From assembly GCA_963801355.1 (NCBI GenBank), contig CAWDEM010000004.1, positions 424,811 through 488,810 on the forward strand: a stretch of 64,000 nucleotides of DNA, in the 5' to 3' direction. The number at the start of each line of letters is the position of its first letter. Position 1 is the first letter of the stretch. The translations under genes and the position numbers were made by a program. Source of the stretch: Ignavibacteriota bacterium. GTDB taxonomy: Bacteria; Bacteroidota; Ignavibacteria; UBA10030; UBA6906. The notes under the pieces were generated by a model that did no database searches, was not told the origin of the DNA, and saw only the letters and a program-made list of their open reading frames with translations. This document shows, one piece after another, positions 19,590-19,810 of the stretch.

Positions 19590-19810
19590 AGACATGTGGA
19601 CATTCCCTATAGCGGGGTGTGTCCATGTCCATACTCTTGGACACCGAGGACGCCTAAAATCTCTCCCCTGTCCATTTGGACATTTGGACACTACACTATA
19701 GGAGGTGTCCAATTGTCCATTTCCCTCCTGGTCGATTTGGACGCCATTTAGACCTGTGTCCATTGGACTAACCTTCCCTTTGGACATCTGGACATGTGTC
19801 CATTTGGGGA
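19590..19810. promoter_or_regulatory. Iteron/operator array: ~18 copies of TGGACA/TGTCCA hexamers in both orientations
   Basis: Examples are gtggacat, tgtccatgtccat, ttggacac, tgtccatttggacatttggacac, gtgtccaattgtccat and ttggacatctggacatgtgtccatttgg. The array lies upstream of the xis-like gene and at the 3' end of the ATPase gene. Confidence 0.65.

Follow-up and report, generated by a model that had tools for sequence, protein, structure and literature searches.

A TGGACA hexamer array at the end of a primase-helicase gene, the probable replication origin of a tRNA-Pro integrative element in an Ignavibacteriota bacterium

Why are so many copies of one hexamer, TGGACA, crowded into about 200 bp of an integrative element, and which protein of this element do they serve? 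The question is raised by a stretch of 64,000 nucleotides from an Ignavibacteriota bacterium (contig CAWDEM010000004.1, positions 424,811 to 488,810), called here the window, in which the array lies among genes that are all on the minus strand. In the direction of the genes the order is: AEP (archaeo-eukaryotic primase) primase-polymerase, AAA_25/DnaB_C ATPase, array, HTH_17 (helix-turn-helix) gene, tyrosine integrase and tRNA-Pro(tgg). An earlier reading made from the letters of the window alone, the sequence-only reading, had proposed that the hexamers bind either the HTH protein, as an operator, or a replication initiator, as the origin of the element. From the analysis reported here we consider it probable that the array is the iteron-type origin of replication (ori) of the tRNA-Pro integrative element, and that the primase-helicase of this element is its cognate binding protein.

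The hexamer array and its layout

Thirteen exact copies of TGGACA or TGTCCA fall within 19597-19802 (206 bp), six on the plus strand and seven on the minus strand:

19597, 19638, 19677, 19685, 19781 and 19789, plus strand: exact TGGACA sites
19620, 19626, 19669, 19706, 19714, 19757 and 19797, minus strand: exact sites

The rest of the window (about 63.8 kb) holds 49 copies, which gives 0.16 expected per 206 bp and a Poisson probability of 5e-21 for at least 13. The densest other cluster in the window has three hexamers, and three was also the maximum over 100 first-order Markov simulations. If one mismatch is allowed, TAGACA at 19589, TGGACG at 19738 and TGGACT at 19764 are added, for a total of 16 sites against 2.5 expected; further degenerate copies are TAGACC at 19748 and TCGACC at 19730. 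The sequence-only reading was therefore right about the density, the coordinates and the mixed orientation of the motif, and its figure of roughly 18 copies was slightly high.

It had also placed the array between the HTH gene and the ATPase and PrimPol genes, which holds for the larger, non-coding portion (19589-19767), but the end of the helicase gene is overlapped (19768-19802). The open reading frame (ORF) of the helicase stops at 19768 and the array begins inside its last 35 nt, with the three sites at 19781-19802 in the final codons (protein tail MDTCPDVQREG) and TGGACT at 19764-19769 overlapping the stop codon; on the other side, 84 nt separate the array from the start of the HTH_17 gene. 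A 91-aa ORF that lies over the array (19512-19787) had no match in a Pfam scan. In the closest relative, locus L001, the stretch that aligns with the array differs by indels of 13, 11 and 3 nt and its only ORFs there, of 63 and 70 aa, are in separate frames, so that no conserved ORF appears to span the array.

The hexamers are ordered rather than scattered, and two palindromic modules lie on either side of a central segment. Each module consists of two direct hexamers, a spacer of 15-17 nt with CTATAG and two inverted hexamers, the inner pair being spaced by 21-23 bp and the outer pair by 37 bp. Searched as a composite pattern (two direct hexamers, 8-24 nt, two inverted hexamers), this plan has only two matches in 64 kb, at 19589 and 19677. 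From the helicase end onwards, the parts of the array are:

19781-19802: hexamer triplet, TGGACA-ca-TGTCCA-ga-TGTCCA in the minus-strand reading, in the last helicase codons
19730-19769: degenerate hexamer cluster TCGACC, TGGACG, TAGACC, TGTCCA, TGGACT, spanning the helicase stop codon (19768-19770)
19677-19719: proximal palindromic module (module 1), TGGACA-tt-TGGACA, 15-nt spacer CTACACTATAGGAGG, TGTCCA-at-TGTCCA; in the helicase direction (19719-19677) TGGACAatTGGACA / CCTCCTATAGTGTAG / TGTCCAaaTGTCCA
19632-19676: central segment of 45 nt between the modules, with single sites at 19638 (plus) and 19669 (minus)
19589-19631: distal palindromic module (module 2), TAGACA-tg-TGGACA, 17-nt spacer TTCCCTATAGCGGGGTG, TGTCCA-TGTCCA; in the helicase direction (19631-19589) TGGACATGGACA / CACCCCGCTATAGGGAA / TGTCCAcaTGTCTA

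Module 1 corresponds to inverted repeat I2, which is 93% complementary, and is collinear with the first module of the relatives (TTGACAnnTTGACA-TTCCTATAC...-TGTCAATGTCAA); module 2 is collinear with their second module, whose spacer reads C-N6-CCTTAGG/CTATAGG-NAA. The central segment, a candidate melting or priming zone, holds a conserved GAGAGATTTT tract on the minus strand (AAAATCTCTCCCC on the plus strand, 19656-19668), and read in the helicase direction it contains GGGGAGAGATTTTAGG plus the two single sites. The central GGGGAGAGATTT is kept in L001, and locus L064 has AGATTTT. The triplet is found in identical form over the helicase 3' end of L064 and, tandemly triplicated, of L001; it is to the additional tandem units of L001 that the degenerate cluster at 19730-19769 aligns.

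Some further observations concern the array and its surroundings. In L001, a 43-nt unit (GAAGATGGACACATGTCCAACTGATGTCCAACCCGATGAATAA) stands in three tandem copies at 7026-7154; since copy 1 forms the end of the gene, that is the last codons of the helicase and its stop, the helicase 3' end was duplicated there together with the sites. Between the array and the HTH_17 start codon of the window, at 19535-19560, lie two overlapping GC-rich hairpins, CCGGGAATCCCGG and CCGGAAGGGGTTTCCGG, without a T-run, which could act like a terminator, or as a regulatory element, between rep and xis-int. As a single strand the array folds better than its shuffles (z = -4.2); we had considered this as a sign of a structured RNA or of a single-stranded DNA origin and set it aside as a trivial outcome of the inverted hexamers. 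An Rfam scan of 19300-20000 gave sub-threshold noise only. Elsewhere in the window, at 46550-48220, about 14 tandem copies of a unit of about 120 nt (60-87% identical) apparently encode a 40-residue protein repeat on the minus strand, split among short ORFs. The periodic run of TGTCCA at 46.5-48.2 kb stems from this coding repeat, and was therefore rejected as a relative of the array.

Linkage to the helicase gene and to its winged helix

Concerning the genes next to the array, the following features are needed for the argument:

20751-21782, minus strand: AEP primase-polymerase part of the replication gene (Pfam PF22548, 1.2e-21)
19768-20832, minus strand: RecA-fold helicase of superfamily 4 (SF4), RSF1010 RepA/DnaB-like, with a C-terminal winged helix (Pfam AAA_25, 2.4e-25), the proposed iteron-binding initiator
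19813-19983, minus strand: predicted C-terminal winged-helix (WH) domain of the helicase
19849-19890, minus strand: recognition helix of the WH domain, PKTIQRQLNEAIES, which begins K-T-I-Q-R
19212-19505, minus strand: HTH_17, excisionase-like gene (Pfam HTH_17, 2e-11; PHROG excisionase)

The helicase is assigned by Pfam to AAA_25/DnaB_C and matches the profile of RepA (PDB 1g8y) with E = 4e-10. Its AlphaFold model (pLDDT, the predicted local distance difference test score, 87.8) finds in Foldseek RSF1010 RepA first (template-modelling score, TM, 0.77), then DnaB and T7 gp4, and its PHROG label is DnaB-like replicative helicase or primase-helicase. By Pfam and by the best structures it is thus a RecA-fold SF4 protein and not an AAA+ one (superfamily 3, SF3, or MCM-like). 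In searches of plasmid and phage proteins the matches, IncQ RepA helicases and phage primase-helicases, reached only 25-30% identity and in no case extended over the WH domain; a similarity search of plasmid DNA gave no match, and among viral contigs only three distant helicase loci (28% identity) were found, without the C-terminal domain. In PADLOC the helicase had no match and the primase had generic PrimPol matches only. For the latter reason the Pfam name 'AEP-TOTE' of the primase was taken as a generic AEP match, a literature search on TOTE being empty.

The sequence-only reading named the flanking genes correctly (integrase, xis-like HTH, AAA ATPase, PrimPol), but the ATPase and the PrimPol are one gene in the closest relative: AEP, PriCT and helicase form a single 669-aa ORF in L001, and they are fused in P0002 and others as well. 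When searched by tblastn, the L001 fusion maps to three frames of the window with the domain order unchanged. Two +1 frame changes flank the PriCT segment (about 20831-20976) and part primase from helicase, one of them in the run CCCAACCCCTTT; they reflect either a pseudogene or an assembly error. Despite these upstream frame changes, the ORF of helicase and WH is complete and all hexamers are intact.

With the ATPase as query, a protein search gave 34 relatives of 40-68% identity in Ignavibacteriales and Bacteroidota metagenome-assembled genomes, with PF09250/PF22548, PF08708 and PF13481 as precomputed Pfam domains and, in several, fusion to Prim-Pol and PriCT_1. The comparison covered 21 loci from genomes, 32 from metagenomes and 8 contigs that contain named matches. 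A module is present at the helicase stop codon in about 30 of 48 related loci, and the two-module plan is seen there in most loci with sequence left past the helicase; in many of those with TTGACA-type hexamers the stop codon TGA itself belongs to the first hexamer. For the 40 related loci retaining such sequence, a search for the composite pattern gave 33 matches, spread over 17 loci, in the 19 kb next to helicase ends and a single match in the remaining 276 kb. Near helicase ends T-N-GACA is 6.9 times as dense as elsewhere in the loci taken together, and 10-24 times as dense in many of them, and in the 5.3-kb locus L064 all 15 TGGACA sites fall within 210 bp at the helicase end. The architecture is kept across loci whose helicases are 36-74% identical while the spacers diverge, some details of which are nevertheless common to relatives and window: in module 1, CCTATA(C/G) adjoins the direct hexamers; in module 2, C-N6-C(C/T)T(T/A)AGG stands ahead of the inverted hexamers; and the central AGATTT tract is common to the window and its closest relatives.

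These loci also indicate which gene the array goes with. In L001, whose helicase is 74% identical to that of the window, an array of 14 sites (7031-7290) lies at the helicase stop, and the HTH_17 gene (8844-9116), followed by the integrase, comes 1.55 kb past it, beyond three ORFs and with no TGGACA nearby. In L059 the HTH_17 gene is upstream of the primase, again with no TGGACA near it, and the array still follows the helicase, with hsdM next. A tblastn search of L001-L024 with the HTH_17 protein of the window found a homologue in L001 only, though most of these loci have arrays. The gene past the array differs among relatives (a small unknown ORF, hsdM, RadC, an opposite-strand Mu Gam-like gene or a tRNA) and the integrase may be upstream or downstream, whereas the position of the array is fixed to the helicase gene. 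Since L001, L059 and other loci separate the helicase from the HTH gene, the comparison of sequences links the array to the former and not to the latter.

The hexamer itself varies by lineage in an unchanged layout (TGGACA, TAGACA, TTGACA/TCGACA, TTTGTTA, TCATCA), and it does so together with the recognition helix. In the first set of loci, the helix starts with K-T-x-(Q/D)-R in 8 of 8 TGGACA loci, and with R-T-I-D-R in all TTGACA loci; no TGGACA locus of this set has R-T-I-D-R. In a tree based on the ATPase domain only, the K/TGGACA loci are found in at least three or four separate places, L035 being nested among TTGACA/R loci. We then predicted the hexamer from the helix for eight further proteins before their DNA was viewed: TGGACA modules were present in 6 of 6 K-type proteins, and the A-type protein has a new iteron, TCATCA, in the same layout. 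This co-variation argues that the predicted WH domain of the helicase itself is the partner of the hexamers. Two of the variant layouts, both palindromic and with a CCTATA-containing spacer, are those of L063 (1945-2050), with repeats TCATCA/TGATGA and helix start A-T-I-D-R, and of L010 (7045-7165; also L029), with repeats TTTGTTA/TAACAAA and helix start S-S-L-D-R.

Origin, operator or other site

We read the array as the ori of the element because the logic of the pri-rep-ori cassettes of Staphylococcus aureus pathogenicity islands (SaPIs) fits: a helicase with a WH domain, iterons after rep, and opposed pairs. The proposal of a replication initiator and origin in the sequence-only reading is thus well supported by the comparison of loci, as the array keeps to the 3' end of the helicase in dozens of relatives and its hexamer varies together with the WH domain. 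The mechanism might be as follows. After excision, a Rep protein composed of AEP, PriCT, a RecA-fold hexameric helicase and the C-terminal WH domain would recognise the TGGACA hexamers through the recognition helix. The opposed hexamer pairs of each module would set helicase subunits in opposite orientations around a short centre, giving head-to-head rings; the DNA between or within the modules would be melted and the helicases would encircle single strands, after which the AEP domain would prime and the host polymerase extend.

Several points weigh against an origin bound by this helicase. About one quarter of the relatives have no array after the helicase (e.g. L009, L011, L013, L016, L033, L038). 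There is no clear AT-rich unwinding element in the array, an 11-nt A/T-rich patch (CTAAAATCTCT) being all that was found (GC is 0.49 in the array, 0.51 in the central segment and 0.55 in the window), and the AT-rich centre of SaPI origins, as summarised in PMC9371898 and PMC7581432, has no evident counterpart here. The copy in the window may be a decaying, non-replicating element, given its broken primase-helicase and its fragmented restriction-modification (RM) genes; alternatively, the assembly may be locally wrong. The R-type protein P0005 (RTIQR), among the eight used for prediction, also has TGGACA sites, which weakened the one-residue rule 'K means G at position 2' that we had considered, so that a recognition code would involve more than one residue. 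The co-variation could in part reflect co-inheritance of WH and array as a recombining block, in which case linkage is implied, but not necessarily direct binding. Finally, binding, melting, double-hexamer loading, replication and continued activity of the element are steps that we infer only.

In the relatives without an array any origin must be elsewhere, since the hexamers are missing there. Eight of these loci (L009, L011, L013, L016, L021, L033, L038 and L048) share a conserved GC hairpin (CCCC-N-C-G-GTGA-N-A-N-CTG-N-GGGGATTTTT) just past the helicase stop, and in several array-less relatives a tRNA gene follows at a distance of a few hundred nt at most.

The strongest of the other explanations, which we still consider improbable, is that the array binds Rep for regulation only: the WH domain bound to the hexamers would terminate or repress transcription of pri-rep into xis-int, or autoregulate, and replication would take place elsewhere or not at all. 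Iterons often double as origin and regulatory sites, which counts for it, as do the lack of an AT-rich core and the position of the array between the helicase stop and the HTH_17 and integrase genes of the same strand. Control of read-through is conceivable, and a scan for sigma-70 promoters and intrinsic terminators, a tool whose coverage does not extend to Bacteroidota-type promoters, found neither inside the array. However, the variety of genes that follow the array in the relatives means that a role in xis-int control is not conserved, and the two-module geometry of convergent palindromes fits origins at which helicases are loaded (PMC9371898). It should be noted that regulatory and origin roles are compatible and not mutually exclusive.

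That the array is instead the operator of the adjacent xis/AlpA-like HTH_17 protein, governing excision and replication genes, as the sequence-only reading had offered, we consider very unlikely. The array is directly upstream of this gene in the window, at the 84 nt already given, and excisionase-family proteins are able to bind repeated sites; but the arrays of L001 and L059 stay with the helicase, a homologue was found by tblastn in L001 only among L001-L024, and it is with the WH domain of the helicase that the hexamer co-varies. This part of the sequence-only reading is therefore not upheld.

Slightly less likely again is that the array serves the mobile element as a cis site of some other type, be it an origin of transfer, arm-type sites of integrase or Xis, or a centromere-like partition site. 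Direct and inverted repeats, the single-strand folding and an element with integrase and attachment (att) sites would all suit such a site. Nevertheless the folding score follows trivially from the palindromes, Pfam scans of selected ORFs of the region found no relaxase or partition domain, and the array keeps to the helicase where the integrase moves. Its distance from attL, 1.6 kb and beyond the integrase and HTH genes, is also far from the approximately 200 bp from the att core that would characterise arm-type sites. That the cluster arose by chance or from base composition, or is left over from a coding repeat, is next to impossible, for although the 120-nt coding repeat at 46.5-48.2 kb illustrates that hexamer clusters can arise trivially, the Poisson probability, the architecture conserved across loci and the lack of a conserved ORF over the array all speak against it.

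Returning to the origin bound by the element's own helicase, a more specific claim can be put forward tentatively, as a possibility that falls a little short of an even chance. It is that a RecA-fold SF4 helicase loads itself via its own WH domain, with no separate initiator or loader, head-to-head on twin palindromes, and that a diversified pairing of helix and hexamer creates orthogonal mini-replicons in integrative elements of Ignavibacteriota and Bacteroidota. Judging from the sequences compared, a helix starting with K/Q would go with T-G-GACA, R..D with T-T-GACA, and other residues with TCATCA or TTTGTTA. To our knowledge, the initiator-helicases so far characterised as self-loading (SaPI Rep, P4 alpha, Cch of the staphylococcal cassette chromosome mec, SCCmec, and the viral E1 and large T antigen, LTag) are all of AAA+/SF3-MCM type.

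As for the significance of these results, a candidate origin is now assigned to a widespread, uncharacterised family of primase-helicase replication proteins, which is found on integrative elements with defence genes in Ignavibacteriota, Bacteroidota and Chlorobi-like bacteria, groups known for the most part only from metagenomes. If the proposal is true, the rep-ori cassettes (about 2.3 kb) with their distinct iteron specificities would be mutually compatible mini-replicons for genetic tools in these phyla, and the principle of the self-loading initiator-helicase would be extended from AAA+ to an SF4 RecA-type helicase. The natural correspondence of helix and hexamer is open to direct test by swaps of one or two residues, and two T-N-GACA, about 16 nt containing CCTATA and two TGTC-N-A can serve in annotation as a specific marker of such elements.

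The integrative element and the systems it resembles

The end of the element near the array is defined by these features:

18049-19071, minus strand: tyrosine integrase (Pfam Phage_integrase, 7e-25)
17911-17986: tRNA-Pro(tgg)
17943-17998, plus strand: attL, the 3' half of tRNA-Pro(tgg) plus 12 nt, with an identical 56-bp copy (attR) at 51992-52047

The exact 56-bp repeat places the array within an integrated region of about 34 kb, whose cargo comprises a PD-T7-4-like DUF4145 protein, a fragmented type I RM system, a SIR2 and a Piwi-domain protein and a second helicase module. A second tyrosine integrase (52127-53170) starts 80 nt past the distal repeat, and two elements therefore apparently stand in tandem at one tRNA. 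The DUF4145 protein (23122-23823) is the PADLOC match to PD-T7-4. At 30015-33082, a SIR2_2-domain protein (548 aa) adjoins a weak Piwi-domain match (482 aa), which looks like a short prokaryotic Argonaute/SIR2 defence pair. At 24632-29813, hsdR, hsdS and hsdM are each split into two to four overlapping ORFs, whereas the SIR2/Piwi genes and the chromosomal (housekeeping) genes at 1-17 kb are intact, a pattern suggestive of decay confined to this stretch of the island. Two copies of a 72-nt sequence, 89% identical and in direct orientation (23008-23079 and 33528-33599), enclose a 10.5-kb block. Inside it are the genes of the PD-T7-4-like DUF4145 protein, of the type I RM system and of the Piwi-domain and SIR2 proteins, besides a 248-aa ORF; the two copies may bound a nested insertion or a recombination module. 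On the plus strand at 42890-45429, within the att-bounded region, an AAA_24 protein followed by a DnaB_C/AAA_25 helicase forms a second replication-type module.

After the array of many relatives, two ORF families were recognised, neither of which is in the window. Family A is marked by the motif G-(D/E)-I-(S/T)-x-(D/E)-E-L and family B by the N-terminus MGGxGSGRxGxRPVVE:

L002 1112-1345, L004 7128-7328, L006 5869-6054, L034 2045-2281, L036 1369-1584: ORF family A (60-80 aa)
L007 7385-7897, L008 7232-7711, L026 4378-4926, L030 4362-4850, L034 2306-2773: ORF family B (155-180 aa)

Systems of this kind are familiar. The present family and its hosts, with an SF4 helicase, a proposed twin-palindrome origin and a correspondence of helix and hexamer, appear to be undescribed in the searchable literature and have no counterpart in the plasmid and phage collections. 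The nearest comparison is with the pri-rep-ori cassettes of SaPIs and other phage-inducible chromosomal islands (PICIs). SaPI Reps bind iterons of 5-6 nt via a C-terminal WH domain, the 6-12 iterons follow rep directly, two or more of them on either side of a centre and in opposite directions (PMC9371898), and the Rep helicases self-load as two hexamers (PMC9371898, PMC7581432). As far as these cassettes (Ubeda et al. 2007) are summarised in PMC9371898 and PMC7581432, the likeness extends to an integrative element with integrase and excisionase-like gene, a primase and helicase that are adjacent or fused (PriRep5), a helicase with a C-terminal winged helix, and an iteron that differs by element and is matched to its Rep. 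Hexanucleotide iterons likewise start at the end of the rep ORF, here and in about 30 relatives, and the modules at 19589-19631 and 19677-19719 place at least two opposed iterons on each side of a centre. On the same summaries, SaPI Reps differ in being AAA+ helicases (SF3-like or MCM-like, 3'-5') instead of RecA-fold SF4-type ones, and the present array differs in its two separate palindromic modules with extra triplets and in its host, a bacterium of the FCB (Fibrobacteres-Chlorobi-Bacteroidetes) group with relatives in Ignavibacteriota/Bacteroidota. No packaging or capsid-redirection genes (terS, cpm, major capsid protein) or phage-interference genes were found among the ORFs scanned, the annotation of the element being not exhaustive.

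Schemes related to the SaPI logic are those of P4 alpha, SCCmec Cch2 and pRN1 ORF904 (PMC7581432, PMC4234260): Cch2 binds repeats downstream of its own gene (PMC7581432), and the origin of pRN1 is within 166 bp downstream of orf904 (PMC4234260). With P4 the element shares primase, helicase and WH, short direct and inverted repeats, and integration at a tRNA gene. P4 alpha combines primase, helicase and a C-terminal WH origin-binding domain in one polypeptide. It binds short direct and inverted repeats, and P4 is an integrative satellite-type element at a tRNA gene, with an SF3 helicase and octamers (TGTTCACC) in two separated clusters (ori and crr). Here, in contrast, hexamers take the place of octamers and form one cluster only in 64 kb, the helicase is SF4-type and the primase belongs to another family.

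The IncQ plasmid RSF1010 uses a RepA helicase without a WH domain, the primase RepB' and a separate initiator, RepC, on three direct 20-bp iterons. Its RepA is the closest solved structure to our helicase, and both are primase-plus-helicase replicons with iterons; here, however, the helicase bears its own WH domain, and 6-bp sites form convergent palindromes. Between integrase and primase, neither the ORF list nor the Pfam scan showed a RepC-like gene. Concerning geometry, at the origins of SV40 large T antigen and papillomavirus E1, two hexameric helicases assemble head-to-head on a palindromic core, starting from short penta- or hexanucleotide sites in inverted pairs. Both proteins belong to the SF3 helicases of eukaryotic viruses and have their origin-binding domain at the N-terminus. 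The resemblance is a geometric analogy only, with no homology; these origins are mentioned in PMC7581432.

The general organisation of the element recalls the tycheposons, cargo-carrying tRNA-targeting elements of marine cyanobacteria with a lineage-specific integrase, for which no origin is described (bioRxiv 10.1101/2020.12.28.424599). In both, a tyrosine integrase stands at the tRNA end with a small primase/helicase module beside it and then cargo, which here consists of defence genes. Concerning the protein, the AEP-PriCT-RepA/DnaB-WH proteins of mobile elements, in which the WH was predicted to serve origin recognition (Kazlauskas et al. 2018, PMC5862659), have the same order of AEP, PriCT-1, RecA-type helicase and WH as the protein studied here, a likeness by domain order. 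No origin was identified for those proteins, whereas our analysis offers a candidate origin together with a correspondence between WH and iteron.

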